Part shown: piece by piece, positions 34,451 to 56,650 of the stretch
Numbering within the stretch: position 1 is the stretch's first letter
Layout of the letters: each line of letters begins with the position of its first letter
Assembly (NCBI GenBank): GCA_964016885.1
Contig: OZ024742.1
Span: 254,572,001-254,636,000, forward strand
Direction of reading: 5' to 3'
Source: Eledone cirrhosa
Taxonomy: Eukaryota
Length of the DNA stretch: 64,000 nt
Position numbers and translations under genes: made by a program
The notes under the pieces: model-generated
Databases searched by the model: none
What the model saw: the letters and a program-made list of their open reading frames with translations, nothing else
Told to the model about the DNA's origin: nothing

Positions 34451-34830
34451 GGCAGCAAATTGGCAGGGATTTTAGAATGTTAGAATCTATTTTGTTGCAG
34501 TGTTTGTTCTGTCTCTCTGCACTTTGAGTTCAAATACTACCGAAGTCAACTTTATCTTTCATCCTTCCAATAAACCACTGGTCAATATAATTGGCTTTCA
34601 CCTCCCCAAATGTCTGGCTTTGTGAGAAATCATTATCAGCATTATTATTAGGCAGTATCGTAGAGGGTCGGACGCCATGCTTTGATGCATAGAGTTACGG
34701 CGCTTGCCATTCTGAGTTCAAATCCCGCCGAGGTTAACTTTGCCTTTCATCCTTACGAGGTCGATAAAATAAAGTACCAGTAATGCACTGGGTAATTGCT
34801 GGCCTTGTGCCAAAAGTAGAAACAATTATT
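34451..34830 (+). mobile_element. Old Meta-domain SINE (34451-34635) followed by a young, slightly 5'-truncated SINE (34651-34830)
   Basis: B boxes gagttcaaat, Meta domains and attatt tails. Confidence 0.85.
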
Positions 34831-34837
34831 ATTATTA

Positions 34838-36010
34838 TTTTGATAGCTCAGTCATTGTTGTTATTAAACCAGAAAATTTGCCCTAATGAACATGAAGTCA
34901 CTACCTGCAGTCTCAGATATTGAGGATGTAACGGAGGGTCTTTGCTGTTCCCAGTAGGCATGCCTTCTGGAGTGTTCTAAAAAGAGGGCTGAGCTAATGT
35001 TCTTTAACCAGCCCTGGAAGCACTTAAGACGATGGGAGTGACCTTCATTTCATAACAGTTCCAAATTCGTTTCAGTTCCCACTTTAAATCCTGGTACCAG
35101 TTCATTTTCTCTTTCTCCTTTTCTTGCACTCTTTTGTCAAGGGGGTAAGCTACATCCACATATAATCAAGCTAGATCTCTTTTCCTTGTCCAATAAAGGC
35201 AGGTCAGGCCTATTGTGTTCTAAGTCTTTGTCTGTTTGCATCCTGAAATACCACAGCAACTTCACTTGATCATTTTCTGTCACTGACTCTGACTTATACT
35301 GATATTATTTCTCAGAATAAGGTAATTTATTCAGTTTACATAAATGTCAGTGAATCACATTTCCTATGATATCATGCCTCCATCCTTTATAGTCAGTCAG
35401 GGCTAGGTGTTTAAACTCAGATATGTTACAGTTTCCTTTCTCACTCTCCACAGATCATACAGCATAGGCTTGCCTCCTCCTTGCCAATATGGTGTTTCAT
35501 CCACTTTGTTCTAAGGGCTTGCTCCTGTGCAACCAGTAGCATTCATTCTGTGGCTTACTTAAGGTCCACTTTTTTAACCAGTTCCATGTCTGCAGATATA
35601 TGAACTCTGTTTTCTTTAAAGAATGTTAAAAGGGCCTTTGCATGAAGATTGTTCTTCCTCTTTGTTGGTACTTCTTTCTTGGACATCCACTGGTCTATTG
35701 TCTCCTCCTTCAATACAACCTTACACATTGGCTCATTACTCTCAGACATATATCGTTGTAGACAGCTCTTCCCCACCTGAACACAGTCCTCTATTCTAAT
35801 TAGACCTCTTCCTACTTCAAATCCCCTTAAGTACAGTCTATCAACATCACCCTTCTTATGAAACATACTCTAGATAGTCATTGATTTCCTTGTCTTCCTT
35901 TCCAGTCTTCTTGCTCATATACATTCCATTTAAGAATTCCCGCACTGTATCCAATGATAGAAACAGCTCAGGAATTCACTGCAGTTAGGACGTTTCTATT
36001 ATTCAGATGT
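34838..36010 (-). mobile_element. Decayed 5'-truncated Dong/R4 copy (older subfamily)
   Basis: MFHKKGDVDRLYLR...GRGLI. The 3' UTR and (TAA)n tail are homologous to the intact copies. Confidence 0.88.
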
Positions 36011-36116
36011 TTTGTATTCAGCTTCCAGTTGTAGGGGTCCTCATCCACATTCTCTCCTTGAGATATACGGCTTATATACATCAGCTTTAGAGTGGAGCTA
36101 TTATTATTATTATTAT

Positions 36117-36170
36117 TGTACTGTATTTTACCCTACATGTCGGCCTGTGTGGGCATTAAATGAAATCATT
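36117..36170 (+). mobile_element. Extremely truncated Tx1-like 3' tail between two (TAT)n tracts
   Basis: catgtcggcctgtgtgggcattaaatgaaatcattatt resembles catgttagcccttctggccaataaagaaaccattatc at 46434-46470. Confidence 0.55.
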
Positions 36171-36189
36171 ATTATTATTATTATTATTA

Positions 36190-39100
36190 TTGTTGTTATT
36201 CCTTGAATCTCAGTCATTGATGTTGGTTAACTGGAAAGTCAGTTGGAATGAATATCAAGCCACTACCTGCAGCCTCAGATATTCAGGACGTATCGGAGGG
36301 TTCTTGCTGTTCCCAGCAAGCATGCCTTTTGAAGCGTTCCAAAAAGCGTGAAGGGGCCGATTTTCTTTAACCATCCCTGGAAACTTTTGGAGATAGTCCC
36401 CAGTGCGCCTATGACAATCGGGATCACTTTGACTTCATGGCAGTTCCAAATCCTTTTCACCTCACACTTTAGGTCCTGGTATCGGTTAATTTTCTCCCTC
36501 TCCTTCTCTTGCACTCTCGTGTCGAATGGGCAGGCCACGTCCACAATCAGACACGATCTTTTTTCTTTGTCCACAACCACCAGGTCAGGTCTATTGTGTT
36601 CCAGTTTCTTGTCCGTCTGTATCCTAAAATCCCACAGCACCTTCACCTGATCGTTCTCCATCACCGCCTCTGGCCTATGCTCATACCATTTCTCAGAATG
36701 TGGTAAATTGTTTACTTTGCACAGGTGCCAGTGGATCACCCTGCCCATCACATCATGTCTCCAGCCCTTATAGTGGGTCTGGGCTAGGTGTTTACACTCG
36801 GACACAATGTGAGCCACAGTCTCCTCTCTGTCTCCACAGATCCTGCACAGTGGGCTAGCCTCCTCCTTGTAAATATGGTGCTTCAACCACTTCGTTTTGA
36901 GGGCCTGCTCCTGCGCAGCCATTAGCATTCCTTCTGTAGCCTTTTTGAGGTCTCCTCTTCTCAACCAGTTCCATGTCTGTGGATATCTAAATTCAGTTTT
37001 CTCAAAGAAGGTACTATGAAGGGATTTTCCCTGAAGGCTGCTCTTTCTCCTTGATGTTATTTCCTCCTTGGACATCCCCTGGCCTTCTGTCCCCTCCTTC
37101 AGTACAGTTCTGAGCATTGGCTCCTTACTATCAGTCACGTATTTGTATAGGTTGTTTTTCTCCATCTGAACACAGTCCTCTATGCTGATAAGACCTCTTC
37201 CACCCTCAGATCTCGTTAGGTAGAGTCTATCGACATCACTCCTCTTGTGGAACATGTTGTAGATAGTCAATAGCTTCCTAGTCTTCCTATCCATTTCTTT
37301 TTGTTCAGCAACATTCCATCTCAGAATTCCAGCACTGTACCTAATAATAGACACAGCTCGGGAATTTACTGCGCTTATGGCATTTCTGCTGTTCAGATGT
37401 GACTTCAATACGCACCTTATTCTCCGAATGTATTCGGTTCTTAACAATTCCTTCATTTTTTTGTTCTTTATGCCATCAGCCTCCAGAACGCCCAAATACT
37501 TGTATCCTTCCTCAGAGTCAATTTCCTTTATCATCTCACCTGTTGGTATCTGGATTCCGTTATTTCTGCTCAACCTACCCCTCCTCATCACAATGACTCC
37601 ACATTTACCAATACCAAACTGCATACATATATCACTGCTGAAAATACGGACAGTGTCAACAAGCACATCCAACTCCTTCTCACTTTTCCCGAAGAGCTTA
37701 AGATCGTCCATGAAGAGGAGGTGATTGATGGTAAGCTCTCCCCTTCCCAACTTGTATCCTGCTCTCACTTTTCGCAGCATAATGGTCAAGGGCATCAGGG
37801 CAAGGACAAACAACAGAGGGGACAGGCTATCTCCCTGGAAGATACCTCTCTTGATCTTCACGCTTCCCAAGGATACTCCAGTTGATGTCAACTCTGTCTC
37901 CCAGGACCCCATACTCCTGCCCAGCAACTGTCTGATGTTCTCTGCCACCTTGAAGATCTCCAGGCTTTTGGTGATCCAAGAATGAGGCACCATGTCAAAT
38001 GCCTTTCTGTAGTCTATCCATCCCATGGCAAGATCAGTGTGTCTCCTCCTGCAATTCCCCATTACCATTTTATCAATAAGTAACTGGTCCTTTGTACCAC
38101 ATGACTTCTTTCGGCATCCTTTCTGTTCGTCCGGTAAGAAGTTGTTTGTGTGGAGGTGATGGTAGATTTCCTCAGACACAATGCTCGTCAACAGTTTCCA
38201 CATTACGGACAGACATGTGATAGGTCTATAGTTGGTAACATCATTACCCTTGATTCGGTCTTTCATTATCAGAACTGTGGTACCTTTTGTCAACCACTCT
38301 GGCACCTCACCCGACACCAAGCAGTCATTGAACATGGCCGTCAGCTTCGGGTGGAGGGATGTTAAATTTTTAATCCAATACCCCTGCACACCATCTGGGC
38401 CTGGCGATTTCCAGTTGGTTAGTTTTTTGGCCTGCCCCTTGAGAGTTTCAACTGTGATACTCAAATCAGTTTGTTGGTGTGCCTGTTCACCGATCTCCCT
38501 CTGTACTGTCTCAATCCACCCTGCCTGGTCATTATGTCTAACATCCTGCTCCCATATTCCTCTCCAGAATATTTTAGTTTGTTCCGCCCCAGGGATCAAG
38601 TCGTTGCCTCTTTCTTTCCCCTCAAGCTGTCCAAACAGCATCTTCTGGTTGTTGTCGAACATGCGGTTCTGTTTATACTGACTGACTCTGTTCTCGTATC
38701 GCCTGATTTTGGCACTCTTTGCTACAATGCGTTGCTTCAGTTCCTCTATGATAATATTTAGCTTTTTCCTCCTAGTGTTGTACTTTATTTCGAGTCTATT
38801 TTTAGTGCCTATGTTTTTTAGTGTCCCATTCAGTAGTGACTCAAGCTTTCCTATGTCATTTCTCATTTCCTTGATTTGACCACTCAGTCGTTTCTTCCAC
38901 CAAGGCTCTGCTCTTTCTTGTCTGTTGTTTCCTCTCGCTTTTATACCAAGTAGTTTCCTCACCGTATTTGCTGTTGTTTTGAGGATATTGTTGCACTGGT
39001 GAAGGCTCCTCGCCTCAAGGTATGGGATGACTTTGTTTACCTTAGCTGTTGTTTCTTTTAACTTTTTCCTGTCTACAAATCTTAGGTTCATACGTTTCCC

Positions 39101-40717
39101 ACTATCATTGTTCAATTCATCTACCACTAAATTTAGGATGTCAACCGAATCTTGTCCTAGCCCGTCAGCATTCATCTCCTCAGTGGCCGTATCTCTGTTC
39201 CAGGTATTATTTATCTCAGTATTTAGATCATTGTCTGCTTCGGGTGGTTCCTCCGTTCTCTCGACCTCTTCACCTTCATTTCCCACTGGCTCGTGTGTCC
39301 GGCATATTACACCCTCCATCTCCAAGCTATTCTCTCTGCTCAGTTCCTCCAGTTCCACCTCGCTTATCCACCCATTAGTTCTTATTACCCGAGCCAGCCC
39401 GGCCAATTTTTGTTCATCTAATTTAAATAGACCAATCTCTTTCCAGATGTTATGCATCCTTTTCCTATAGCCCCTCTCCTTGGGGTTACTTTTCAGGTAA
39501 CATTGCATAACAGTTCTATTCAATTCTTTCGTCCAGTTGGTTCTGGCCCCTTTCTTTCTTCTCTTTCCTCCAACATCAGCAGTATTTGGTTGACAGTCAG
39601 GTTCCTGCTGCTGAGCCAGGGAGCACCTGTTGGGTGAGAGTCTGTCACATGACGTTCTAGTCTCCATTTCACCATTATTCGAACTGTTTAGGTTCGATAT
39701 TTAAACACTCTTATCGAGGATTGGCGAATGTATGGTTACATAGCCATCTGTGGATTCTCCGTCGCCGGTGTTTGCGCCGCTCCACTTGGCACTTGTGTGG
39801 CATTATCCCCACGCTGTAGACGAACACAAATAAACAAACAAACACACAGGCAGAAAAGACCCTAAAAATGAATAAGCATAAGTTTCATTTTAATGTAGTG
39901 TTCGAATGTCTGACTTAGTTTTTCCCCCCTCTTCTTTGTCCGTCCGCTTGTTTCTCTCTTCATTCTTATTTTCTTTACGTTTTTTTTTTTTGTTTTGTTT
40001 TTCTCGTTTTTTGCTGTTGTTGCTGTGCTGCTTTGGTTTTGTTGTTTGTTTTTCTTTTTTCTTTTGAGTCTATTTATATATTTTGATGCCTTCCTCTTTT
40101 TTAGTAGTAGGAATTCTATAATGTGGTGGCAGCAGCCAGCAGGCAGATGTGGGAGACAGTAGCGGCTGTATCGATACTGAGACAGTGGTGGTGGTGATGT
40201 CGATACCGAGGCAGTGGTGGTGGTGATGTGATCGTATTACTGTAGTGATGGTGTTGTAGCGGTGGTAGCAATGAAGGAGTGGTGGCGGCGGTGATGGGAT
40301 AGTGGTGGTAATGATGGCAGTAGTGAGTGGTGGTGGTGAAATTGCCGTTATCTGGCTGTTGTGTTTAGTGTACACAGAGAGGTGATGGGGTAGGTGGTGT
40401 ATCTAGTTTCTGGTGTTGGTGAGTTTGGTGTTGTTTGGCTGTTCTATATAGTGTAGACAGAGGAGGGGGGTGTTCTTCTTCCATTTATAGCCATTTTCTT
40501 TTTTGAATATACAATGTACAATACAAAGTTGTATATTTGAATATTTGAGCCTTATAACAATATATTTTGGGTCCGAATTTTTGGGGACTCAAGCCGGATG
40601 CTTTACGTAGCATTTGTACTAAGAGTTGTTATTTCACAAATGATTTAAATATGTTAAAAATTCAAAACTTACGGGAGCGATTTCATGACCTTCCACCACC
40701 TCGTGCGTCTTCTTCCC
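36190..40717 (-). mobile_element. Full-length Dong/R4-clade non-LTR retrotransposon (copy A1, ~4.5 kb) in (TAA)n
   Basis: Single ORF, ~1.05-kb 5' UTR starting GGGAAGAAGACGCACG, short 3' UTR, and (TAA)n on both sides. Confidence 0.96.
36275..39667 (-). CDS. R4-clade polyprotein: Myb-like N-terminus, reverse transcriptase, CCHC zinc knuckle, restriction-like endonuclease (1130 aa)
   Basis: WTKELN...GYRKRM, SPGPDG, YRPITCL, WIDYRKAFD, GIFQGDSLSP, LFMDD, YKYLG, CRIC...HIVSEC, RH, RPD...DVACP...EKINRY. Confidence 0.96.
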   Translation of the reverse strand: METRTSCDRLSPNRCSLAQQQEPDCQPNTADVGGKRRKKGARTNWTKELNRTVMQCYLKSNPKERGYRKRMHNIWKEIGLFKLDEQKLAGLARVIRTNGWISEVELEELSRENSLEMEGVICRTHEPVGNEGEEVERTEEPPEADNDLNTEINNTWNRDTATEEMNADGLGQDSVDILNLVVDELNNDSGKRMNLRFVDRKKLKETTAKVNKVIPYLEARSLHQCNNILKTTANTVRKLLGIKARGNNRQERAEPWWKKRLSGQIKEMRNDIGKLESLLNGTLKNIGTKNRLEIKYNTRRKKLNIIIEELKQRIVAKSAKIRRYENRVSQYKQNRMFDNNQKMLFGQLEGKERGNDLIPGAEQTKIFWRGIWEQDVRHNDQAGWIETVQREIGEQAHQQTDLSITVETLKGQAKKLTNWKSPGPDGVQGYWIKNLTSLHPKLTAMFNDCLVSGEVPEWLTKGTTVLIMKDRIKGNDVTNYRPITCLSVMWKLLTSIVSEEIYHHLHTNNFLPDEQKGCRKKSCGTKDQLLIDKMVMGNCRRRHTDLAMGWIDYRKAFDMVPHSWITKSLEIFKVAENIRQLLGRSMGSWETELTSTGVSLGSVKIKRGIFQGDSLSPLLFVLALMPLTIMLRKVRAGYKLGRGELTINHLLFMDDLKLFGKSEKELDVLVDTVRIFSSDICMQFGIGKCGVIVMRRGRLSRNNGIQIPTGEMIKEIDSEEGYKYLGVLEADGIKNKKMKELLRTEYIRRIRCVLKSHLNSRNAISAVNSRAVSIIRYSAGILRWNVAEQKEMDRKTRKLLTIYNMFHKRSDVDRLYLTRSEGGRGLISIEDCVQMEKNNLYKYVTDSKEPMLRTVLKEGTEGQGMSKEEITSRRKSSLQGKSLHSTFFEKTEFRYPQTWNWLRRGDLKKATEGMLMAAQEQALKTKWLKHHIYKEEASPLCRICGDREETVAHIVSECKHLAQTHYKGWRHDVMGRVIHWHLCKVNNLPHSEKWYEHRPEAVMENDQVKVLWDFRIQTDKKLEHNRPDLVVVDKEKRSCLIVDVACPFDTRVQEKEREKINRYQDLKCEVKRIWNCHEVKVIPIVIGALGTISKSFQGWLKKIGPFTLFGTLQKACLLGTARTLRYVLNI

Positions 40718-40719
40718 TA

Positions 40720-40784
<65 letters not shown>

Positions 40785-40787
40785 CAA

Positions 40788-40975
40788 GGGCAGTGGATTG
40801 GCAGTATCGGTAGAGGGTCGGATGCCATGCTTTGTCGCATTGAGTTACGGCCCTTGTAATTCTGAGTTCAAATCCCGCTGAGGTTAACTTTGCCTTTCAT
40901 CCTTACGGGGTCGATAAAATAAAGTACCAGTAATGCACTGGGTAATTGGTGGCCTTTTACCAAAAGTAGAAACAA
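40788..40975 (+). mobile_element. Full-length Meta-domain SINE in a (TAT)n tract
   Basis: A and B boxes, Meta domain and tail. attattatca occurs on both flanks. Confidence 0.92.
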
Positions 40976-40994
40976 TTATTATCATTATCATTAT

Positions 40995-42405
40995 TATGTT
41001 TTTTCTTTGAGGTTCTAATGCTGGAGATGTATTAGGGTATCAGCTGTTCATTGCCCATAAACTGAGGTAACGCCGCTCATTTTTCCAAGCATCCTCTGGA
41101 GTATTGGAGCTGTCTCAAACAGTGCGGTTTTTTGCAAGTGCTCATCACATATTGACACCTCTTTTTGAGGAATGTACTTCTCAAGACCTTTACTTACTTC
41201 ACACATTCCAGGATCCAAGAATATCGAATAATATCATAGGCTTTGCATTAATCAAACCACAATATGACCAAGCTGGTTTTCCTTCTTTTGCGATCCCTAA
41301 GTATTGTTTTGTCTATCAAAAGCTGATCCTCAGTATCTTTGTACTTACACTTGCACACTTTCTGCTCCTCTGGAAAGACCCCATTTAATTCAAGGTGCCC
41401 ATTCATTGATTCTGAATTTATTCCAGCCTATAATTTCTCCATAAGTAGACTCCTCTTTTGTTTGGTCTAACCTATTGTCTAATCTCTTTGATTGTCTTTC
41501 TTCTTCTAGACATCTACATCCATGTTCCCTGCTACAACAATGCTTGCTGACTTAGGCAGATTATTTGTTTCTGTTGTGTTATTTTTTCTGATGTATTTCA
41601 GAATTTCATTTACCTCTTTTGTTTCTTAGTTCAACTTCCATTGGTCAACCTTTTTATGTTTGCAAATAATGTTATTGATATCCTCTTGTAACCTTGCTTT
41701 TATTCTGTCTAACATTGCCTTCTGCTCATCTCTCATGTCTCCTTGAATTCCATTGTCTTCCAGATCATCCATATTTCTCTCACTGGACAAACTATCATTG
41801 CTCGTCTTGTGTGTGTTACCAGAAATCTCTTCACTCTTATCCTCTACTGTAGGTTCCCTTTCTCAGTATGAGCTGTAATTTCATCATTTCTTCCACTGCT
41901 GTTTTATAATACTTGTCTTTTGGTAGCTTCGTGTTTCACATCTGTCAACAAGCGAATTTTTTTTAATGCTGTGGCTTGGTCACATAATCACTGCTCTATG
42001 AGTTAAAACAAAGCTCTTTCTCTCCATTGTCTGTACATATGTTCCTAGTATCCCTCAATAGGGACAATATTTTCATCTACAAGTTTGCTCTATGACCACA
42101 ACATTTGCTTGTTTACTCCCCTTCCAACTTGTTTGCTGATCCATTGCTGGATAACAACCTGCTGGAGTTGAACTAGATACTCCAAGTGTGCTGAACACCA
42201 CTTCTTCACCATCAAGGTTTCTTCTGAAATTTTGATTTGATATTACCACTCACATGAGGTAACGATTATTAGGTTGCAATTTGACAGGTTTTGTTTTTCA
42301 TCCATTGAGGATGGCCAAATTTACCCTCTTCACTGATCACCTGACAATGTCACAGATTGTACTGGGTTACATGTTACCAGTAGCACTTGAAAGTTTCCTA
42401 ACCAT
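40995..42405 (-). mobile_element. Internally deleted, decayed R4-like element of a different family
   Basis: Minus-strand remnants of Myb-like (EQ.LCDQA), RT (DQLLIDK, KAYD...SWI) and RLE C-terminal (LQKTALF) regions, with a TAA-like tail. Confidence 0.7.
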
Positions 42406-42413
42406 AATTATTT

Positions 42414-42700
42414 TGCCTTTCATTCTTACGGGGTCGATAAAATAAAGTACCAGTAATGTACTGGGTAATTGCTGGCCTTGTGCCTAAAGTAGAAACAATT
42501 ATTTGACAATCTAAGGGCGGTGAATTGGCAGTATCGGTAGAGGGTCGGACGCCATGCTTTGACGCATAGAGTTACAGCCCTTGCCATTCTGAGTTCAAAT
42601 CCCGCCGAGGTTAACTTTGCCTTTCATCCTTACGGGGTCGATAAAATAAAGTACCAGTAATGCACTGGTTATTTCTGGCCTTGTGCCAAAAGTAGAAACA
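42414..42700 (+). mobile_element. Tandem SINEs: truncated copy (42414-42500) and full-length copy (42515-42700) with TSD attatttgacaatcta
   Basis: The TSD is visible at ~42498-42513 and ~42701-42716. Confidence 0.92.
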
Positions 42701-42719
42701 ATTATTTGACAATCTATCA

Positions 42720-44158
42720 TAACCAACTTTGATGTTGCTTTGGGCCAGTTATTTTAGGGAATACTAGGCTACAGTTAGATACCTAGGGTAACTCTATATT
42801 TTTCATATCTTTCCTTGTCGTTTCACTACTGCTGGTAGTACAGAACCTTTTCAATATCTGAGCTTTTCCAGTAGGCGCAGTTCAATTCCTGGTGCAAAGT
42901 GTTTTTTTAACAGGTAATTTCCAAGGTTCTTTGTCACTATGCCAAGAGCACCAATCACCACTGGGACAATGGTGACTGTCTTCACTTCATTACTCCAGCA
43001 TTTCAAGATCTCATATTTTAAGTCAGCATAAGTCCCTATTTTCTCCTCTTTTTGTTCAATTCTGGTATCATAGCGTACAGCTTCTTTCCTTCTCAATTAC
43101 AACAATATCTGGTCTGTTGTGTTCAATCTTCATCTCAGTCTGAATTAGTAAGTCCCTAAAGAACCTTATCTCATTGTTCTCTAACACTCTGATTTCATTT
43201 GTGATACCGTGTTCGTAGCTTTTTTCTGTACATGGAAATTCATACTTTTTACACAAGCTCCAGTGCAACATGGTAGCCACTTTATCATGTTTACCTTTTG
43301 TTATATTCATTATAGGCTAACAGCTTACACTCTGGAACGGTATGGGCAACTGTTTCTGTTTATCCACACAAATTCTGTATTCAGTTTGAACATATTTCTT
43401 GTCTATGTTTTTCACTACCTGTCTTGTTTTTCTGGCTTGATTTTGTGCTGCTAATATAAGTAATTCCATTCCATTCTTAATGTAGTCTTTCCATAACCAT
43501 AACCAAGTATTTTTGTTATCACACACGTTTCTTGTTTACTTAAGGAATCCTGAAGGCAGGGGCTTTTCATCAAATTCTTTATTATGCTCTTTAGCAATCA
43601 CAGTCTTTGTATTTTCTGGGTCTCCATATATGCCTTCCCTGACAACTTCCAATATAAGTTTTTCTTCCTTATTTTTTTATGTAGAATCCTATAACACTTT
43701 CTTTTATTTAGACAGCATCCTGTATGTTCAGCATTCCCTACCTTCCTTTTTTCTTTTTCAATACTGGTGCCTACTTCGATAGATAGTGAGCATTTTACTT
43801 GTTTTATGATCAATTTCCTTCAACTCTACTTTTTTCCATTCTTCTATACCTGCACCATTCCTAATTAATGAAACAGCTCTGGCATTTATTCCCTGCACAG
43901 TATTTCTACCATTCAAACTGGACTTAAGCATCAATCTCTATTTTCAAACGTACTCTTTTCTGACAATATTTTCCACTTTTTTGCTTTTTAATGTATGGCT
44001 TTATAGCACACCTAGATATTTATATGCTTCATCTGTTTCCAGTGAAATGATTCTTTTACTGTTTGGTAGTTTGATTCCACCACACCTTACCAGCCTTCAA
44101 CGCATCACCTCTATCATTGCATATTTTGAAATTCCAAACTCCATCCTAATGTCCTCAG
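42720..44158 (-). mobile_element. Decayed 5'-truncated R4-like element (another family)
   Basis: LAAQNQA, CRIC-like, HDKVATMLHWSLC, HNRPDIVVIEK, IVPVVIGALG. The 5' junction abuts a (TAT)n tract. Confidence 0.85.
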
Positions 44159-44174
44159 AAATTATTATTATTAT

Positions 44175-44460
44175 TATCTTTTACTTAATGTCTCAATCAT
44201 TGATTGTTATTCAGCCAGAATAATTGCTGTAATGAACATCAAGTTGCTACCCGCAGTCTCAGATATTCAGGACATATTGGACGGTCATTGCCGTTCAAAG
44301 TAGGCATGCCTTTTGAAGTGTTCCAAACAGGAAAGTGGGCTGATGATCTTTAGCAAACATTGGAAACTCTTCGAGAGAGTATCCAGTGCTCCCATAATGA
44401 TGGGGATGACTTTGATCTCATGGCAGTTCCCAATCCTTTTCAGTTCCTTCTCCAGGTCCT
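44175..44460 (-). mobile_element. Short 3' fragment of Dong/R4
   Basis: QDLEKELKRIGNCHEIKVIPIIMGAL plus the homologous 3' UTR and TAA tail. Confidence 0.85.
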
Positions 44461-45628
44461 GAAGCATGAGAAGTGTAGTTTTTGCTGATGTTGTTTCTAT
44501 AGTATTGATAGTACCTTTCATAATATGTGTGCAGTGCCTAGTAGTGCTATCTTTTGTATGCTGTAAATATTTATAAGACCTGGGGTTTAGGTTATGTATT
44601 TGTCTTTTGTTTTTTATCATTCTCAGAGCACCTATTATTATAGATATTATTTCTGTTTCATTTTCCACATTCGGGTTATTTCTATCTCTAGATCTTTATA
44701 TTTGGAGAGTTTCTCTATTTCCTTGGAAGATATATTGTCGTCTTTGGGGGATTGATACAACTATTAAAAGGCATTTTCTGCTTTGTGGTCTTTCACTATA
44801 ATATCAGGTCAGTTGGCTTCGATTTCCCTGTCTGTACGTATTGGCAGGCATATCCCAGAGAATGGTTGCTTTGTCATTCTCTGACACTTTTTACGTGTGT
44901 GTTTATACCATCTTTTTTCTGTTAGTATTTCATAATGATGGCATAACTTCCAGTGTATGAAGGTCCCAACTATATCGTCCCTCTGGATATTCTGGACATC
45001 CAGAAATAATGTGGTTGACTGTTTCTTCCCTATCCCCACATATTCTACAGATACTTATTGTGCTTTGTTTCATTATGTACTTCTGGTAGTTTCTGGTGGG
45101 TAGGCTTTGGCCTGCACGGCAATTAGAAATCCTTCCATCCAGTGCTTCGGAGCCAATTGTGTATGTTTTCTTTGTCTGCTTACTTTTTATCTAGCTTTTT
45201 GGGGTATTTGCCATGTAACGATTTCTCTTGCCGTTGTTTTAACATGGCATTCTGGAGGTCAGTTCTCAATTTAGATTTTATACCTTTCACAATTTCTGTT
45301 GTTTTTTTTATTTGTTTTCATTTTTCTCTCAGTTATGTTATTCCAGTTTCTGATTTAACTTTTTTGGCTTCCTTGAAGACCGAGAACAGTTATTGTTTTG
45401 TTCATGTTTTGTGGCTATTTGTATTAGCTTTCTTTTGTTTTTTTATTAGGTAACTTTGTAGTCCTACAGTAATTATTTTATAAGAATTTACTAGTTGTAT
45501 AAGGACCTTTCCTCCTTGTGTCCTTGTGTTCTTGATAGATATAATCTTTCTACGTCTGAATTTGGATGGTCTTTTCTAAAGGCAGTCATTATTTTTCTTG
45601 TTTTCCCATCTATTCCAGCTAGTTCTTT
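44461..45628 (-). mobile_element. Decayed R4-like fragment (further family)
   Basis: FIHWKLCHHY...WYKH, IRTDREIEAN and IIIGAL motifs. Confidence 0.8.
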
Positions 45629-46470: not shown

Positions 46471-46484
46471 ATCATTATTATTAT

Positions 46485-49400
46485 TGTTCTTTGAGTCTCA
46501 GTCATTGATGTTAGTTAACTGGAAAGTTTGTTGAAATGAATATCAAGGCGCTACCTGCAGCCTCAGATATTCAGGACATGTCGGAGGGTTCTTGCTGTTC
46601 CCGGCAAGCATGCCTTTTGAGGTGTTCCAAAAAGTGGGGCTGGACTAAGCTTCTTTAACCATCCTTGGAAACTCTTTGAGATAGTACCCAGTGCGCCTAT
46701 GACAATCGGGACCACTTTGACTTCATGGCAGTTCCAAATCCTTTTTAACTCCCACTTTAAGTCCTGGTATCAGTTAATTTTCTGCCTCTACTTTTCTTGC
46801 AATCTCGTGTCAAATTGGCAAGCTACATCTACAATCAGGCACGATCTTTTTTCCTTGTCCAAAACCACCCGGTCAGGCCTATTGTGTTCTAATTTCTTGT
46901 CCGTCTGTATCCTAAAATCCCATAGCACCTTCCCCTGATCGTTTTCTACCACCGACTCTGGCTTATGCTCATACCACTTCTCAGCATGTGGTAAATTGTT
47001 TACTTTGCATAGGTGCCAGTGGATCACCCTGCCCATCACATCATGTCTCCAGCCTTTATTGTGAGTCTGGGCTAGGTGTTTATACTCGGATACAATGTGA
47101 GACACAATCTCCTCTCTCTCTCCACAGATCCTACACAGTGGGCTAGCCTCCTCCCTGTAAATATGGTGTTTCACCCATTTCGTTTTGAGGGCCTGTTCTT
47201 GCGCAGCCATTAGCATTCCTTCTGTAGCCTTTTTAAGGTCTCCTCTTTTCAACCAGTTCCATGTCTGTGGATCTCTAAATTCAGTTTTCTCAAAGAAGGT
47301 ACTATGAAGGGATTTTTCATGAAGGTTGCTCTTCTTCCTTGTTGTTATTTCCTCCTTGGACATACCCTGGTCTATTGTCCTCTCCTTCAGTACAATTCTG
47401 AGCATTGGCTCCCTACTCCCAGTCACGTATTTGTGTAGGTTGTTTTCTCCATCTGAAAACAGTCCTCTATGCTGATAAGACCTCTTCCAACTTCAGATCT
47501 CCTTAAGTAGAGTCTATCGATATCACTCCTCTTGTGGACACATGTTGTCGATAGTCAATAGCTTCCTAGTCTTCCTATCCATTTCTTTTTGTTCAGCAAC
47601 ATTCCATCTCAGAATTCCCGCACTGTACCTAATAATAGACACAGCTCAGGAATTTACTGTACTTATGGCATTCCTACTGTTCAGATGTGATTTTAATACA
47701 CTCCTTATTCTCCGAATGTATTCAGATCTTATCAATTCCTAACTTTTTTGTTCTTGATGTCATCAGCCTCCAGAACACCCAAATATTTGTATCCTTCTTC
47801 AGTGTGAATTTCCTTTATCATCTCACCTGTTGGTACCTGGATTCCGTTGCTTCTTCTCAATTTACCCCTCTTCATCATTAGGACTCCACACTTACTAATA
47901 CCAAGTTGCATACATATATCATTGCTGAAAATTCGGACAGTGTCAACAAGCACATCCAACTTCTTCTCACTCTTCCCGAAGAGCTTAAGATCGTCCATGA
48001 AGAGGAGGTGATTGATGGTAAGCTCTCCCTTTCCAAACTTGTATCCTGCTCTCACTTTTCGCAGTATAATGGTCAGGGGGATCAGGGCAAGGACAAACGA
48101 CAGAGGGGACAAACTATCTCCCTGGAAGATACCTCTCTTGATCTTCACCCCTCCCAAAGGTTCTCCACCCGATGTTAACTCTGTTTTGCAGGACTTCATA
48201 CTTTTGCCCAACAACTGTCTGATGTTATCTGCCACCTTGAAGATCTCTAGGCTTTTGGTTATCCGAGAATGAGGTACCATGTCGAATGCCTTTTTGTAGT
48301 CTATCCATCCCATGGCAAGACCAGTGTGTCTCCTCTTGCAATTCCTCATTACCATCTTATCAATAAGTAACTGGTCTATTGTACCACGCGACTTCTTTTG
48401 GCATCCTTTCTGTTCGTCCGGCAACAAGTTGTTTATGTGGAGGTGATGGTAGATTTCATCAGACACAATGTTTGTTAACAGTTTCCACATTACGGACAGA
48501 CATGTGATAGATCTATAGTTGGTAACATCATTACCCTTGATTCGGTGTTTCATTACCACAACTGTTTTACCTTTTGTCAACCACTCTGGTACCTCACCTA
48601 ACATCAAGCAGTCATTGAATATGGTAGTCAGTTTCGGGTGGAGGGATGTTATATTTTTAATCCAATACCCCTGCACACCATCTGGGCCTGGTGATTTCCA
48701 GTTGGTTAGTATTCTGGCCTGCCTCTTAAGAGTTTCAACTGTGATACTCAAATCAGTTTGTTGGTGTGCCTGTTCACTAATCTCCTTTTGTACTGTCTCA
48801 ATCCACACTGCATGATCATTATGTTTAACATCCTGCTCCCATATTCCTCTCCAGAATGTCTTAGTCTGTTCCGCCTCAGGGATCACGTCGTTGCCTCTTC
48901 CTTTCCCTTCAAGCTGTCCAAACAACATCTTCTGGTTGTTGTCAAACATGTGGCTCTGTCTATACTGACTGACTCTGCCCTCGTATCACCTAATCTTTGC
49001 ACTCTTTGCTATAATGCGTTGCTTCAGTTCCTCTATGATAATATTTAGCTTTTTCCTCCTAGTTTTGTACTTTATTTCCAGTCTAATTTTAGTGTCTATG
49101 TTTTGTAGTGTCCTATTCAGTAGGGACTCAAGCTTTCTAATGTCATTTCTCATTTCCCTGATTTGACCATTCAGTGGTTTCTTCCACCAAGGTTCTGATC
49201 TTTCTTGTTTGTTGTTTCCTCTCGCTTTTATGCCAAGTAATTTCCTCACCGCATTTGCTGTTGCTTTGAGGATATTGTTGCACTGGTGAAGGTTCCTCGC
49301 CTCAAGCTATTGGATGACTTTGTTTACCTTAGCTGTTGTTTCTTTTAACTTTTTCCTGTCTACAAATCTTGGGTTCATAGGTTTCCCACTATCATTGTTC

Positions 49401-51105
49401 ATTTCATCTACCACTAACTTTAGGATATCAGCCAAATCTTGTCCTAGTCCGTCAGCATTCATCTCCTCAATGGCCGTATCTTTGTTCCAGGTATTATTTA
49501 ATTCAGCATTCAGATCATTGTCTGCTTCGGATGTTTCCTCCCTTCTCTCAACCTCTTCACCTTCATTTCCCACTGGACACGTTTGCCTGGCATACTCCAC
49601 TCTCCATTTCCAACCTAATCTCTCTGCTCAGTTCCTCCAATTCCAGCTCGCTTATCCACCCATTAGTTCTTATTACCCGAGCCTGCCCGGACAATTTTTG
49701 TTCATCTAATTTAAATAGACAAATCTCGTTCCAGATGTTAAGCATCCGTTTCTTATAGCCTTTTTCCTTGGAGTTACTCCTCAGGTAACATTGCATAACC
49801 GTTCTATTCAATTCTTTCGTCCAGTTGTTTCTGGTCCCTTTCCTTCTTCTTCTTCTTCCTCCAACACCAGCAGTATTTGGATGACAGCCAGGTCCCTGCT
49901 GCTGGGCAAGGGAGCACCTGCTGGGTGGGAGTCTGTCACATGACGTTCCAGTCTCCACTTCACCGTTATTCGAACTGTTTAGGTTCGACATTTAAACACA
50001 CATATCGAGGATTGGTGAATGTATGGTTACATAACCACCGGTGATTTCATCACCCCCAGTGATTTGATCACCCCCGGTGATTTTAGCGAGGCACTATCAC
50101 GCTGTAGACGAACATAAATAAATAAACAAATAAATAGGTAAAAACTTTAAAAAATAAACATAAGTTTCATTGTAATGTTTGAATGTCTGACTTAGTGTTT
50201 TTTTTTTTGTTTTGTTTTTTTCTCTTTACGGTTTTCGTTGCTGCTGCGCTGTTTTGATTTTAGCTTCACGGGAAGTAGGGCTGTTGCGTTCAAAACTTTT
50301 GAAATTTGTTTCGACTTGTTGCTTATCATTATTATTATTATCAGCCGAGGTTAACCTTGCCCTCCATCCCCAATTGATGGCCTTGTGCCAAAAGTAGCAA
50401 CAATTATTATTATTATTATATTATACGGGGTCGATAAAACAAAGCACCAGCAATGCACTGGGCAATTGCTGGCCTTGCGCCAAAAAAAATAGAAACAATT
50501 ATTATTATTATATTATAGTTTAGATTTGACATCGTTTAAACTAAACACTTTGAGAAAGTTTTAGAGGTACAGCAGCAATAATGTTTTTGGTGTTGTTGTT
50601 GCTTCTGACCGGGTCACCAAATCAGTCTATATCTTTTGATACCTTCCTCGCTTAGTGGGACTACTACTATCCCTCTGTCTTAACAGTAGGTAGTGGGAGA
50701 GAATAGCGGCGGTAGCGATAATGTTGCAGTGGTGGTGATGTGATAGTAGTACTGTAGTGATGGTCTTGAAGTAGCCGTTGGTTTGGCTAGATTTTTTGTG
50801 TGTGGTAGTGGTGATGTTGGCGGTGGCGCTGGTGGTGTTGGTGGTGAAATTATTTGCCTGTTGTTTGTAGCCATGTAGCCATTTTTCTTTTTTGAGTATA
50901 ACATTTCTGATCCAAAATTAAATATTAAATATTGGGGCCCTATGCCATAATGTGATGCGTTGTCACTTCCTGAGAGCAAAAAACTCTAATCTTATGTTCC
51001 ATTTGTAATAAGAATTATTCTATCACAATTGTTTTAAATACGTAAAAATCAAAATCTTACGGTAGCGATTCCATAACACTCTATCCACCACGTGCGTATC
51101 TTCCC
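46485..51105 (-). mobile_element. Full-length Dong/R4 subfamily B copy with disrupted ORF
   Basis: ORF pieces 49563-49991, 49307-49600, 48986-49249, 47732-48949 and 46788-47426 are colinear with A1. The 5' end reads GGGAAGATACGCACG. Confidence 0.93.
50344..50500 (+). mobile_element. Two truncated SINE fragments inside the 5' UTR of the B copy, carrying clustered T>C changes
   Basis: Compared by eye with the intact SINEs at 10285, 34651 and 42515. Confidence 0.85.
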
Positions 51106-51155
51106 TTCATTTATCTTCCCTTCAATTTATCTTCCTTTCATTTATCTTCCCTTCA

Positions 51156-51188: not shown

Positions 51189-53550
51189 GTTATTGTTATT
51201 CCTTGAATCTCAGTCATTGATGTTGGTTAACTGGAAAGTCCGTTGGATTGAATATCAAGCCACTACCTGCAGCCTCAGATATTCAGGACGTATCGGAGGG
51301 TTCTTGCTGTTCCAAGCAAGCATGCCTTTTGAAGCGTTCCAAAAAGCGTGAAGGGGCCGATTTTCTTTAACCATCCCTGGAAACTTTTGGAGATAGTCCC
51401 CAGTGCGCCTATGACAATCGGGATCACTTTGACTTCATGGCAGTTCCAAATCCTTTTCACCTCCCACTTTAGGTCCTGGTATCGGTTAATTTTCTCCCTC
51501 TCCTTCTCTTGCACTCTCGTGTCGAACGGGCAGGCCACATCCACAATCAGGCACGATCTTTTTTCTTTGTCCACAACCACCAGGTCAGGTCTATTGTGCT
51601 CCAGTTTTTTGTCCGTCTGTATCCTAAAATCCCACAGCACCTTCACCTGACTGTTCTCCATCACCGCCTCTGGCCTATGCTCATACCATTTCTCAGAATG
51701 TGGTAGATTGTTTACTTTGCACAGGTGCCAGTGGATCACCCTGCCCATCACATCGTGTCTCCAGCCCTTATAGTGGGTCTGGGCTAGGTGTTTGCACTCG
51801 GACACAATGTGAGCCACAGTCTCCTCTCTCTCTCCACAGATCCTGCACATTGGGCTAGCCTCCTCCATGTCTGTGGATCTCTAAATTCAGTTTTCTCAAA
51901 GAAGGTACTATGAAGGGATTTTCCCTTAAGGCTGCTCTTCCTCCTTGATGTTATTTCCTCCCTGGACATCCCCTGGCCTACTGTACCCTCCTTCAGTACA
52001 GTTCTGAGCATTGGCTCCTTACTATAGGTCACGTATTCGTATAGGTTGTTTTTCTCCATCTGAACACAGTCCTCTATGCTGATAAGACCTCTTCCACCCT
52101 CAGATCTCCTTAGGTAGAGTCTATCGACATCACTCCTCTTGTGGAACATGTAGATAGTCAATAGCTTCCTAGTCTTCCTATCCATTTCTTTTTGTTCAGC
52201 AACATTCCATCTCAGAATTCCCGCACTGTACCTAATAATAGACACAGCTCGGGAATTTACTGCGCTTATAGCATTTCTGCTGTTCAGATGTGACTTCAAT
52301 ACGCTCCTTACTCTCCGAATGTATTCAGTTCTTAACAATTCCTTCATTTTTTTGTTCTTTATGCCATCAGCCTCCAGAACGCCCAAATACTTGTATCCTT
52401 CCTCAGAGTCAATTTCCTTTATCATCTCACCTGTTGGTATCTGGATCCCGTTACTTCTGCTCAACCTACCCCTCTTCATCACAATGACTCCACATTTACC
52501 AATACCAAACTGCATACATATATCACTGCTGAAAATACGGACAGTGTCAACAAGCACATCCAACTCCTTCTCACTTTTCCCGAAGAGCTTAAGATCGTCC
52601 ATGAAGAGGAGGTGATTGATGGTAAGCTCTCCCCTTCCCAACTTGTATCCTGCTCTCACTTTTCGCAGCATAATGGTCAAGGGCATCAGGGCAAGGACAA
52701 ACAACAGAGGGGACAGGCTATCTCCCTGGAAGATACCTCTCTTGATCTTCACGCTTCCCAAGGATACTCCAGTTGATGTCAACTCTGTCTCCCAGGACCC
52801 CATACTCCTGCCTAGCAACTGTCTGATGTTATCTGCCACCCTGAAGATCTCCAGGCTTTTGGTGATCCAGGAATGAGGCACCATGTCAAATGCCTTTCTG
52901 TAGTCTATCCATCCCATGGCAAGATCAGTGTGTCTCCTCCTGCAGTTCCCCATTACCATCTTATCAATAAGCAACTGGTCCTTTGTACCACGTGACTTCT
53001 TTCGGCATCCTTTCTGTTCGTCCGGTAACAAGTTGTTTGTGTGGAGGTGATGGTAGATTTCCTCAGACACAATGCTCGTCAACAGTTTCCACATTACGGG
53101 CAGACATGTGATAGGTCTATAGTTGGTAGCATCATTACCCTTGATTCGGTCTTTCATTATCAGAACTGTGGTACCTTTTGTCAACCACTCTGGCACCTCA
53201 CCCGACACCAAGCAGTCATTGAACATGGCCGTCAGCTTCGGGTGGAGGGATGTTAGATGTTTAATCCAATACCCCTGCACACCATCTGGGCCTGGTGATT
53301 TCCAGTTGGTTAGTTTTTTGGCTTGCCCCTTAAGAGTTTCAACTGTGATACTCAAATCAGTCTGTTGCTGTGCCTGCTCACCGATCTCCCTCTGTACTGT
53401 TTCAATCCACCCTGCCTGGGCATTGTGTCTAACATCCTGCTCCCATATTCCTCTCCAGAATGTCTTAGTTTGTTCCGCCCCAGGGATCAAGTCGTTGCCT
53501 CTTTCTTTGCCCTCAAGCTGTCCAAACAGCATCTTCTGGTTGCTGTCGAA

Positions 53551-53551
<1 letters not shown>
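51185..53551 (-). mobile_element. 5'-truncated young Dong/R4 A copy with a ~106-bp internal deletion at ~51866
   Basis: ORFs 51784-53553 and 51275-51868 are nearly identical to A1 and A2. TCC microhomology at the deletion. (TAA)n on both sides. Confidence 0.93.
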
Positions 53552-53593
<42 letters not shown>

Positions 53594-53595
<2 letters not shown>

Positions 53596-55716
53596 AGCTG
53601 CATTTATCTTGCTTTATGTTCATACGAGTTATCACCAAGTCCCAACCAGTGACCTCAAGAGACAACAAGGTCCGCCATGTTCAAGAAAGAACATACATAC
53701 TCACACATGCATCTTTAGTGTTTAGACTTGTTATGTACTTATATTGACAGAATCTTCCTTAGTATATGGGCAGTTCCCATTAGTACTATCTTTTGTATTT
53801 CTCCTATACGCGGGTTTCCTGGGATTTGCGATAAGTAATCATTAGACCCCTTAGGTATCATTCCGAGAGCTCCGACAACCACTGGTATTTCCACATTTTT
53901 CCAATTTCTATCTCCAGGTCCTTATACTTGCTCAATTTTTCAAATGTTTTTATAGATACATTCTTGTCTATTGGAACGGACATATCAATTAGCAGGCATA
54001 CCCTCTTTTTAAAGTCCTTCAATATTATATCAGGTCTATTTGCATCTATTTTTCGGTCTGTTTGAATGCTAAAGTTCCACAAGATTAAGATGTGATCTTT
54101 TTCAAGTATGGGAGGTGGTTGATGCTCCCACCAATTCTTTTGATGGGGCAGGTCAAAATGCTTACACATTATCTAATGTATGTATTGTGCAGCTCTGTCA
54201 TGCCTGTTTAGGTATTCGGTTGGAGCTATAGGACTGCACATTGAAATTATATGGTCAATGGTCTCTGGTTGTTTTTTACATACACGGCATAATGGGCTGC
54301 ATCCGTTTTTTATTATGTTGGCTTGGTAATTTTTTGTTGGCAGACACTGATCTTGTGCTGATATAATCAGTCCTTCAGTCTCCGATTTCAGTCCAGAGGA
54401 TGCCAACCACTGATGGGTTAAAGTTTTGTCAACATCAGGATTGTTAGCTCGTTCTGGGTATTTTCCATACAGACGCCTTTCTTGCCATTTCTTAGCCAGT
54501 TTCTGTAGCAGTTCTTTTACCTGCTTTGCTTTTTCTGTGTTTTCCCTTTCAGCAGTAAATGGGACTTCTGAAATGTGTAGTCCATTACTGTATCTTTGTG
54601 CATCTTTTGTAATGGTGTATGATCTTTTGGTGCTTTCGTGTTTCAAAACGAGTTTGATCATCCAACCATGTGATTCCCTTAGATATGTAGATAATCCAAT
54701 TGTTGCAGTTTTCAACGCAATGTCTAACTGGATTAACCCACGTCCTCCTTCTTTCCTAGGGAGATATATTCTATTTGTATCTGCCTTCGGGTGATGCATT
54801 CTGTGCATGGTTAAGAATTTTCGAATTTTTGTATCGAGCCTACGGATCTCTGTGCTTGACCAGTTGATGACATTGTAACTGTAGGTTACTACTGGTATGG
54901 ACACAATGTGAGCCACAGTCTCCTCTCTCTCTCCACAGATCCTGCACAGTGGGCTAGCCTCCTCCTTGTAGATATGGTGCTTCAACCACTTCGTTTTGAG
55001 GGCCTGCTCCTGCGCAGCCATTAGCATTCCTTCTGTAGCCTTTTTGAGGTCTCCTCTTCTCAACCAGTTCCATGTCTGTGGATCTCTAAATTCAGTTTTC
55101 TCAAAGAAGGTACTATGAAGGGATTTTCCCTTAAGGCTGCTCTTCCTCCTTGATGTTATTTCCTCCTTGGGTATCCCCTGGCCTACTGTCCCCTCCTTCA
55201 GTACAGCTCTGAGCATTGGCTCCTTACTATAGGTCACGTATTTGTATAGGTTGTTTTTCTCCATCTGAACACAGTCCTCTATGCTGATAAGACCTCTTCC
55301 ACCCTCAGATCTCCTTAGGTAGAGTCTATCGACATCACTCCTCTTGTGGAACATGTTGTAGATAGTCAATAGCTTCCTAGTCTTCCTATCCATTTCTTTT
55401 TGTTCAGCAACATTCCATCTCAGAATTCCCGCACTGTACCTAATAATAGACACAGCTCGGGAATTTACTGCGCTTATGGCATTTCTGCTGTTCAGATGTG
55501 ACTTCAATACGCTCCTTACTCTCCGAATGTATTCAGTTCTTAACAATTCCTTCATTTTTTTGTTCTTTATGCCATCAGCCTCCAGAACGCCCAAATACTT
55601 GTATCCTTCCTCAGAGTCAATTTCCTTTATCATCTCACCTGTTGGTATCTGGATCCCGTTACTTCTGCTCAACCTACCCCTCCTCATCACAATGACTCCA
55701 CATTTACCAATACCAA
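53594..55716 (-). mobile_element. Chimeric R4 insert: A-family segment (54900-55716) fused to the 3' half of a divergent R4 family (53594-54899)
   Basis: ORF 54173-55690 switches from ...EETVAHIVS to IPVVTYSYNVINW... and carries two GGRGL thumb regions and two CxxC regions. (TAA)n on both outer sides. Confidence 0.9.
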
Positions 55717-55777
<61 letters not shown>

Positions 55778-56650
55778 GGCGACCTACGTAGTAAATCGTA
55801 TCATCGTGAGCTCCGCAAAGGTTTGTTATTTCCGTTTGTTAAAAATTGACATTTATGGAAAATTTGTATTGTTAACTATATATAAGCGCACATACATTGT
55901 TTTCCGAAAAGGACACCCAAAACGATTGGGGCCTTGTGCCCAAAATTTAAACTTTTATGATTATCAAAAAATTTCTTTGAAAAAAATGGCTAATTCACCT
56001 CTGCACCAAGCAGCTGAGAGCCTTCCTCACAAATTAACACCTCACACCAACACCACCATTGTAAATGTTACTACGTTTGCCAACACTAAAAAAAATATAA
56101 GCAGTAGCAATATTTTAAATTTGACTCAGGCAGACATTCATTTCCCGCCATTACCAATGACTGCAAGTGTTAAAGCCGCCACCCCCACCACCACAGCGAC
56201 AACAGAAACAAAAGGAAAAAATAAATCAACTTGTGATGTCGAAATGTTTTCAACCAAAATGGACTCATCCACACCGAACACCACTGACGTCACCACCAAC
56301 ACAACTGAAACTAAAATTAATAATAACAAAAATAACGATAACAACAACAGCAACAATTACATTAAAAAAACCACCCTGAGTTTTGCCAGACTAGCCAAAC
56401 AGTGCGAAGCATTTACGGTAACTCAGGAGGAATTAGAAAATGGCAAAAAAATGGTAAAAAAAGATGCGTACAGGGTCAGCCCCCCCCCCTAATAAAATGG
56501 AGCATCGGCGCCTATGCACCGTGTCGTATCGAACAATTAATGTAAAATCGCGCCGAGTGGAACGGGCATCCGAGTCCCAAATCCAAAAACCTTTGGGACA
56601 TGTGTGGGCAAGAAAATCCCACATCAGACGTGGGCAGAAGTATGGAACCG
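55778..56650 (+). mobile_element. 5' end (5' UTR plus ORF1 start, ATG at 55986) of a probable Tx1/L1-like LINE
   Basis: Starts right after (TAT)n. Thr/Asn-rich N-terminus, then SFARLA and an RRM-like segment (TVSYRTI...IRRGQKYGTV) across a poly-C frameshift. Confidence 0.6.

Follow-up and report, generated by a model that had tools for sequence, protein, structure and literature searches.

Can a single trinucleotide repeat serve two retrotransposition systems, each working from its own strand? The question is raised by a 64,000-nucleotide stretch of the octopod Eledone cirrhosa (assembly GCA_964016885.1, contig OZ024742.1, positions 254,572,001 to 254,636,000), referred to here as the window, which is AT-rich and rich in microsatellites. 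From 34835 to its end, the window consists almost wholly of non-long-terminal-repeat retrotransposons with TAT runs between them. R4/Dong-like elements lie on the minus strand, and short interspersed nuclear elements (SINEs) and a piece of a Tx1-type long interspersed nuclear element (LINE) lie on the plus strand. The perfect TAT-class runs of at least 11 nt between 34800 and 63100 read TTA/TAT on the plus strand in 15 of 15 cases, and the four runs of AAT polarity in the window all lie outside this cluster. A first-pass annotation of the DNA had proposed that a restriction-like endonuclease (RLE) and an apurinic/apyrimidinic endonuclease (APE) converged on the repeat, priming from opposite strands and each creating targets for the other. 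We consider it probable that the arrangement is instead asymmetric, a nested R4/Dong array having been entered by a Tx1-type LINE and a SINE through nicking and priming of the opposite strand.

The R4 array and the polarity of its junctions

R4-like pieces were collected by tblastn with the 1141-codon frame at 36278-39700, along with translation of decayed parts. Twelve were found between 34835 and 64000, and all twelve lie on the minus strand, as had been claimed for the region in which the plus strand reads (TAT)n. They comprise a young family (97 to 99.9% alike), an older branch (90 to 92%) and several old families. Plus-strand R4-like matches in the window are confined to an old family at 11256-15212, the first copy of which ends in (ACAT)n at 13980 and not in a TAT run.

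As in R4/Dong elements, a single long open reading frame (ORF) carries a reverse transcriptase (RT; RVT_1 match, 3.6e-23), a CCHC finger (position 952) and a C-terminal PD-(D/E)xK nuclease (PD..D at 1038, KINRY at 1070), with an RHD motif at 981. The best PDB matches of the protein are R2 proteins over residues 415-1102, from the RT through the nuclease. A scan of viral contigs with the R4 protein gave no usable related locus.

The junctions show the sense (TAA)n at both ends that characterizes R4/Dong insertions. At the 3' side, 8 of 12 junctions have a sense (TAA)n run of at least 12 nt and none has the opposite polarity, but since each family writes its own tail, a strand split at 3' ends is largely circular. 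The 5' side is more informative: a sense AAT run of at least 12 nt borders 8 of the 11 assessable junctions and a TTA run borders 0 of 11. Five of these eight 5' tracts double as the 3' tail of the next R4, so the strand bias is that of a nested array and not of 12 independent draws. Copies with different 5' cuts (36098, 53551, 55716 and 58133) each stop at a TAA tract, as is expected of insertion into (TAA)n.

SINE copies and their target duplications

Fifteen BLAST rows were reduced to 12 SINE copies by merging two fragments and dropping two diverged matches (9461 and 34525), which look like members of a more diverged family. The six copies of the cluster (34651, 40786, 42412, 42513, 50344 and 50424, the last added here) are all on the plus strand, in agreement with the first-pass annotation. 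Six more lie outside it, between 2216 and 25156, three on the minus strand (5' ends 2305, 4205 and 6755) and three on the plus strand (4312, 10284 and 24966), and none of these has a TTA run of at least 10 nt on either flank. In total, such a run stands on the 5' side of 4 of 12 copies, and 8 of 12 lie outside TAT arrays. The placement of the SINEs in a (TAT)n niche therefore holds for their orientation in the cluster, but not for the copies at 42412 and 42513, which sit at a 6-bp ATTATT, nor for the six that lack a TTA run.

Target site duplications, as expected of a SINE, were recognized in 5 of 12 copies (4205, 6755, 10284, 24966 and 42513); they are 14 to 17 nt long, start with ATTA[TA], and run on from there into unique or TA-rich sequence. 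Another six copies have duplications that are short or confounded by repeats, and the copy at 2305 has only a 4-nt chance match. The copy at 42513 was dropped as an independent site because its upstream ATTATT is the tail of the preceding SINE. At four of the seven independent sites, a duplicated target starting with ATTA[TA] lies 13 to 18 nt upstream, where the background rate is 0.031 for each site (p~3e-5, a value somewhat weakened by local TA-richness). The SINE has a real pre-existing target polarity, for a motif of 5 to 6 bases rather than for a microsatellite. The claim that both enzymes converged on one trinucleotide repeat is thus overstated: R4 is bound to the microsatellite, and the plus side prefers a short ATTAT and inserts mostly outside the arrays.

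In the cluster, some SINEs are found within R4-derived sequence. The copy at 34651..34839 (plus), which lacks about 14 nt at its 5' end, is flanked by a duplicated ATTATTATTA and lies within the tail of the old R4 on its right. A full-length copy at 40786..40980 (plus), with a duplicated ATTATTATC, follows an (ATT)21 tract at 40720..40784 that is the 5' flank of both a minus-strand R4 and this SINE. Two SINE fragments at 50344..50511 (plus) are nested antisense in the AAT tract of an R4 5' region. Two tandem SINEs at 42412..42706 (plus) occupy the single 6-bp ATTATT site mentioned above, in non-microsatellite DNA, the second with a 15-nt duplication.

By eye only, the SINE head has A and B box-like stretches (42513-42620), and ARAGORN found no tRNA. 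A scan of genome contigs for the SINE motif gave nothing usable. A 33-nt core of the SINE occurs exactly, with different flanks, in a GC-richer animal contig (L001, 1818-1850, minus), the sole metagenome match. By eye it holds a different SINE with a common core, which suggests a widely shared SINE central domain, and it was not used. SINEs are described as the largest class of transposable elements in octopus genomes (PMC8967140).

Tx1-type pieces and a 3' stem-loop common with the SINE

The window holds only two Tx1-type ORF2 pieces, both 5'-truncated and both ending in a sense (ATT)n. The first, at 19270..21000 on the minus strand, comprises the RT end, a zf-RVT domain and a 3' untranslated region (UTR) with a hairpin. 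Its tail is a sense (ATT)21 at 19207..19269, that is, (AAT)21 on the plus strand, so the claim of a minus-strand Tx1 at an (AAT)n near 19205 was correct. The second, at 45630..46485 on the plus strand (ORF2 part ~45630-46464), has a 3' hairpin and an (ATC/ATT)n tail, and stands tail to tail with the next R4. As in Tx1, the ORF2 combines an L1-group RT with a C-terminal zf-RVT (1.5e-7). Its profile is nearer to L1 ORF2 (1e-45) than to R2 (1e-24), and six relatives share 61 to 79% identity. One LINE protein has named relatives in Argonauta hians and Octopus bimaculoides. The name Tx1 itself is provisional and follows the first-pass annotation and motif resemblance. An alignment scan of metagenome and genome contigs with the Tx1 sequence gave nothing usable.

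A 220-bp inverted duplicate (93%) joins 19017-19235 to 22636-22856; its inner end is the AAT tract that holds the Tx1 tail, and at 22636-22856 a short (AAT)5 stands where that tail sits in the other copy. As the order of events can be read either way, we did not count the duplicate as showing that a tract was there beforehand.

The SINE and the Tx1-type LINE resemble each other at their 3' ends, as SINEs and their partner LINEs do. Of the 24 nt that precede the SINE tail, 16/24 agree with one Tx1 end and 14/24 with the other. These are the top non-SINE scores among the 420 ATTAT-anchored 24-mers of the window, in which the next best score is 12. The three ends align in register, and each folds into a stem with a 5-nt CUUGU/CUUCU loop, although none of the folds reaches significance by itself (z -0.6 to -1.8). 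Changes on both sides affect three of the four stem pairs, and 36 of 40 cells pair, compared with 22 to 55% in slid controls; the covariation score was reached by 0 of 500 shuffles. The 3' end of the SINE shows no likeness to the 3' UTR of R4 (z -1.2). Because the compensated stem-loop is common to both, the SINE and the Tx1-type LINE are likely one enzyme system, and their orientations would then not be two lines of evidence.

The 36117 and 55778 pieces

Three plus-strand pieces had been called Tx1-like, at 36117, 45630 and 55778, and the assignment stands for the second. The first is a putative Tx1 3' remnant of 50 bp (36118..36167, plus) between two TAT runs. Its match to the Tx1 3' ends is weak (z 4.9 and 2.2; 12/24 and 11/24 when anchored) and it folds differently from the Tx1 hairpin; we therefore rejected it as Tx1 evidence.

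The third, at 55778..56652 (plus), has (TAT)20 upstream and comprises a 209-nt leader, taken as the 5' UTR of a high-copy LINE, and the start of an ORF1-like, Thr/Asn-rich frame, broken off at a C run against an R4 piece. The frame has no Pfam match, and peptide searches gave no relatives, with two repetitive chance matches and Atlas scores below 0.8. Four public runs, two of them from one sample and one from restriction-site-associated DNA sequencing, gave 4760, 5214, 193 and 8859 records over 55766-56700, indicating a high-copy family. In three of the four, a common continuation, DVFF(E/G)TP(E/Q)EA, follows in frame after ...RRGQKYGTV beyond 56652. These peptides look like an RRM-type ORF1 by pattern rather than by database match, so that the piece probably represents the 5' end of a LINE with two ORFs. 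It is probably Tx1-type as well; no physical link to the Tx1 ORF2 was seen.

The depth pattern suggests that many copies of the 55778 family have TAT upstream. The bin that covers the initial 20 nt of the piece together with 12 nt of its TAT flank reaches 97%, 87% and 73% of the depth of the next bin in three runs from organism A, where at most 62% is expected without a shared flank. Within the leader, 27 of 35 bases at 55929-55965 are like the SINE 3' end, a likeness that is not significant by nhmmer (E 1.8-6).

Probable asymmetric use of the repeat and alternative explanations

Target-primed reverse transcription starts from a nicked strand that serves as primer on the tail of the RNA; the TTA strand would then prime an element with sense (TAA)n and the AAT strand an element with sense ATTAT. 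The proposal of priming from opposite strands is supported by what was found, since R4 has sense (TAA)n at both ends and the SINE duplicates a pre-existing sense ATTAT(T). Fitted to the observed orientation, tails, R4 5' tracts, SINE duplications and stem-loop, nicking and priming would proceed as follows. The restriction-like nuclease of R4 would nick the TTA-reading strand, which would anneal to the UAA tail. Insertion would leave (TAA)n on both sides, so that R4 copies arriving later pile up in one direction. The Tx1 system would nick the AAT-reading strand, anneal it to an AUU tail and duplicate 14 to 17 nt. About 5 to 6 matching bases may suffice for this system, which would allow wide insertion, draw it into R4-built tracts and leave it always antisense to R4. 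The niche would thus be asymmetric, with R4 as a strict microsatellite specialist and Tx1/SINE as a loose motif user, the SINE likely borrowing the Tx1 enzymes.

The idea that each side creates targets for the other holds in one direction, as SINEs lie in R4 tails and R4-borne AAT tracts (34825, 40975 and 50328-50520). The reverse direction would rest on 46465 and 36168. Entry of an R4 into the Tx1 tail at 46465 is plausible and is favored because a tract is absent upstream of the Tx1 piece, although a deletion could look alike.

Several points weigh against this asymmetric model. At 5' junctions, the polarity of R4 and of the SINE is not matched by the Tx1 ORF2 pieces: neither is cut at a TAT run (longest run 4 nt in both) and neither has a recognizable duplication, so the target of Tx1 itself is one that we infer. 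An APE domain was seen neither in the window, where both Tx1 copies are cut downstream of its expected position, nor in the three relatives scanned, which gave RVT_1 and zf-RVT only. That the Tx1 side has such a nuclease would follow from its clade, as outlined in PMC4640811. Three of the 11 R4 5' junctions (42400, 45630 and 54899) have no tract of either polarity, and the whole basis is a single locus with nested, non-independent copies. The covariation tool warns that related sequences can beat its shuffles, and the stem sample is small, four pairs and two Tx1 copies, with the outer pair broken in one of the copies. At 55778, the TAT-flank bin reaches 36% of the next bin in the run from organism B, and depth is an indirect measure, for which 24 of 801 loose ends were listed and 40 of 230 differences.

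Among the alternatives, the one that survives best, though we regard it as unlikely, is that R4 and Tx1 are both bound to (TAA)n, having converged on it and feeding each other targets. It draws on the TAT runs 5' of the 55778 (25 nt) and 36117 (19 nt) pieces, the TAT flank that many 55778-family copies may have in common, the R4 that stands tail to tail with the Tx1 end at 46465, and the (AAT)5 at 22636-22856, which may be a pre-insertion tract. Set against these are the 8 of 12 SINEs outside TAT arrays, the lack of a 5' tract in both Tx1 ORF2 pieces, the missing link between the 55778 piece and that ORF2, and the two possible orders of events at the inverted duplicate.

Less likely still, another LINE with an ATT-type tail (RTE, CR1 or L2) might move the SINE, with the 55778 piece in such a family and Tx1 in a minor role. 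The window does contain RT fragments of other LINE types (3-998 and 31406-32077), the 55778 peptides found no relatives, and several CR1 and RTE families are reported as recently active in Octopus vulgaris (PMC13282606); the loop, register and compensated stem that the SINE has in common with the Tx1 ends argue otherwise. Finally, it is very improbable that there is no target polarity at all, the tracts being the elements' own tails and the split arising from tail sequence and local duplication of a few founder junctions: the tail does set polarity at 3' ends, most R4 5' tracts are the next R4's tail, and some R4 pieces are 99.8-99.9% identical to their neighbors, as local duplication would give, but R4s with different 5' cuts each end at a TAA tract, and the idea is largely refuted for the SINE by four unlinked sites in unique DNA, at which ATTA[TA] stands in the duplication's 5' copy.

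Possible capture of a LINE 5' end by R4

Beyond the asymmetric model, the two systems may also have exchanged parts. The 5' UTR of the 55778 piece is collinear, from its first bases to AAAAATGGCTA, with the 5' region of the older full-length R4 at 50876-51107, which is the best of 1134 tiles (score 74 versus 25 +/- 5.5; z 9-12 against shuffles). By nhmmer, the leader matches this region at E 3.8e-4, with high composition bias. The two young full-length R4s in turn have 5' ends that are clear homologues of this older R4 region (z 38). An AAT tract lies 588 nt from the older R4's 5' end, and the Asn tract lies 539 nt from that of the 55778 piece. Speaking against a capture, direct comparison of the 55778 piece with the young R4s is weak (z~3 semi-global, 1.3 local), and a profile of R4 5' regions misses it.

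We tentatively suggest, from sequence comparison, that RLE and APE systems both work one microsatellite from opposite strands and swapped parts, R4 having captured a Tx1-type 5' UTR, a reading we regard as possible rather than probable. In the simplest route, an R4 would have inserted, in the same orientation, into the tract of AAT/AAC asparagine codons in a Tx1-type ORF1, been transcribed from the promoter of the host LINE and founded the successful young R4 family, which would retain the Tx1-type 5' UTR and a dead ORF1 start. The 5' module has R4 polarity in 3 of 3 full-length R4s and the opposite polarity at 55778. If the capture is real, polarity follows the enzyme and not the 5' sequence, because the same module has AAT upstream on R4 and TAT at 55778. 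Swapped or common LINE 5' ends have been recorded in other groups (PMC4758252). The capture, if true, would be a promoter transfer between deeply diverged LINE groups with its mechanism visible.

Relation to known systems

Dong is described as inserting in TAA microsatellites (PMC3812793, PMC1635306), a habit found in Bombyx mori, Anopheles gambiae and Biomphalaria glabrata for this member of the R4 clade and in Rex6. The 5' junction of B. mori Dong was amplified with a sense TAA primer (PMC3774820), which is the polarity seen here. Its nuclease is given as restriction-like in PMC1635306 and appears in an APE-type list in PMC3812793, at odds with the motifs seen here. An HDV-like (hepatitis delta virus-like) ribozyme is reported at the Dong 5' end (PMC3774820). 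Unlike Dong, R4 here has a 5' region of about 1 kb, which may come from a two-ORF LINE, and no Rfam ribozyme match: the 6 Rfam matches with E up to 1 in 34000-64000 include no ribozyme, in a search not aimed at the ribozyme motif. Among the LINE groups of O. vulgaris, Dong-R4 is described as having the most recently active insertions (PMC13282606). Octopus repeat surveys report Dong-R4 and L1-Tx1 as active or expanded, and target polarity goes unmentioned in the portions of them covered here (PMC13282606, PMC9115989, PMC8967140).

In stringent SINE-LINE pairs, the loop close to the tail is conserved and the stem varies, with changes that compensate each other (PMC3747384), and the SINE and LINE ends here are alike in this. 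They differ in the length of the common part, only ~35 nt, and in having as partner a Tx1-type LINE of an octopod.

For opposite-strand use of one repeat, a close parallel is TRAS and SART, which we take to be APE-type relatives of the R1 clade. These two silkworm LINEs insert into the telomeric (TTAGG)n in opposite directions, cutting opposite strands (PMC7265360). Their repeat is telomeric and made by the host, whereas here the nucleases would belong to different classes and it is largely the elements that build the repeat. Parallel arrival of an RLE and an APE element at one target is known from Utopia (RLE) and Keno (Tx1 clade, APE) in U2 snRNA (small nuclear RNA) genes (PMC4640811), where, unlike here, the target is a gene, the site is the same, and the identical 3' flanks give the same orientation. 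The Tx1 families Kibi and Koshi, and crocodilian Tx1 families, also target microsatellites, and Tx1-Mar likely mobilizes SINEU (PMC4494074). Tx1 targets described there include (TC)n, (TTC)n, (TTCC)n and (TTTC)n, compared with (ATT)n here. A target-specific Tx1 family is defined in the same source by more than 20% of flanks in one repeat type (PMC4494074); against this measure, a 5' tract is present in 0 of 2 Tx1 ORF2 pieces, and the depth of the 55778 family speaks to it indirectly.

Insertion of Dong into TAA, opposite-strand use of a repeat and convergence of RLE and APE elements are thus already known, and since these general principles are established, the surprise of the locus is limited. 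We found their combination nowhere in print: our literature search, with Repbase, subscription journals and supplements, which may already record it, outside its scope, turned up neither Tx1 at (ATT)n nor a microsatellite that R4 and Tx1 use in opposite directions. What the locus adds is the likely partnership of the SINE with a Tx1-type LINE through the compensated hairpin, new here, and the possible R4 5' capture. The two systems form a natural pair for asking how RLE and APE nucleases read opposite strands of one trinucleotide duplex. A probable partner LINE can be named for the octopus-type SINE, through a short and mutable hairpin. The asymmetric model could also provide a concrete route for the growth of transposable element hotspots and (TAT)n tracts in octopus genomes.

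Other elements of the window

All further R4 pieces of the cluster are given here in order, on the minus strand. An old, 5'-truncated copy at 34840..36098, which shares 74% with the young family, is bordered on either side by sense (TAA)n. The young full-length element at 36201..40719 contains the 1141-codon frame with RT, CCHC, RHD and PD..D..KxxRY, and has the 5' region of about 1 kb. Decayed R4-like sequence at 41000..44160 is in two parts, in the sense direction the C-terminal half at 42720-44160 and then the N-terminal half at 41000-42400, which breaks off in the RT and has an AAT/GAT tail at its end. The halves are nearly complementary, as in a copy that is permuted or derived from a tandem. 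At 44178..45630, the 5' cut of an old copy abuts the Tx1 5' cut without a TAT run. The older full-length R4 at 46486..51155 (90% to the young family) has the 5' region like the 55778 piece and the AAT tract. At its 5' end (51108-51155), the first 15-16 bases recur in about three short tandem copies, for which template jumping at the 5' junction could be the source.

A young 5'-truncated R4 at 51201..53551 has sense (TAA)n at both ends and an internal deletion at 51864-51870. The 3' part of a second R4-like family (53595..54899), with a (TAA)14 tail, is joined without a tract to an internal piece of a young R4 (54899..55716), which has a sense (AAT)20 at its 5' cut. The join of the two families at 54899 is in frame and gives a 536-codon chimeric open frame (54173-55783). 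Next come another internal piece (56650..58133), with an imperfect sense (TAA)n at its 5' cut, and the second young full-length R4 (58188..63035), which is 97% identical to the first over 3.5 kb and has a 1141-codon open frame. Its 5' region contains a 335-bp direct duplication (96%) at 62224-62876. The 3' part of a young R4 at 63071..64000 runs off the window.

Outside the cluster, two old R4-like copies at 11256-16330 (plus) with (ACAT)30 between them represent another microsatellite niche within the window; a different repeat, with a (CAT)n end, splits the second copy at ~15280-15730. The RT fragments at 3-998 and 31406-32077 are on the minus strand and are presumably RTE-like by resemblance. 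A GIY-YIG-like frame at 26368-26883 (plus; Pfam E 8e-4, below the cut-off) is probably a Penelope-like remnant. Inverted repeats at 28718-29446, at 4565-4820 with 34037-34262, and at 23851-26067, one of 163 bp at 96% and the others looser, look like miniature inverted-repeat transposable elements or the ends of DNA transposons.

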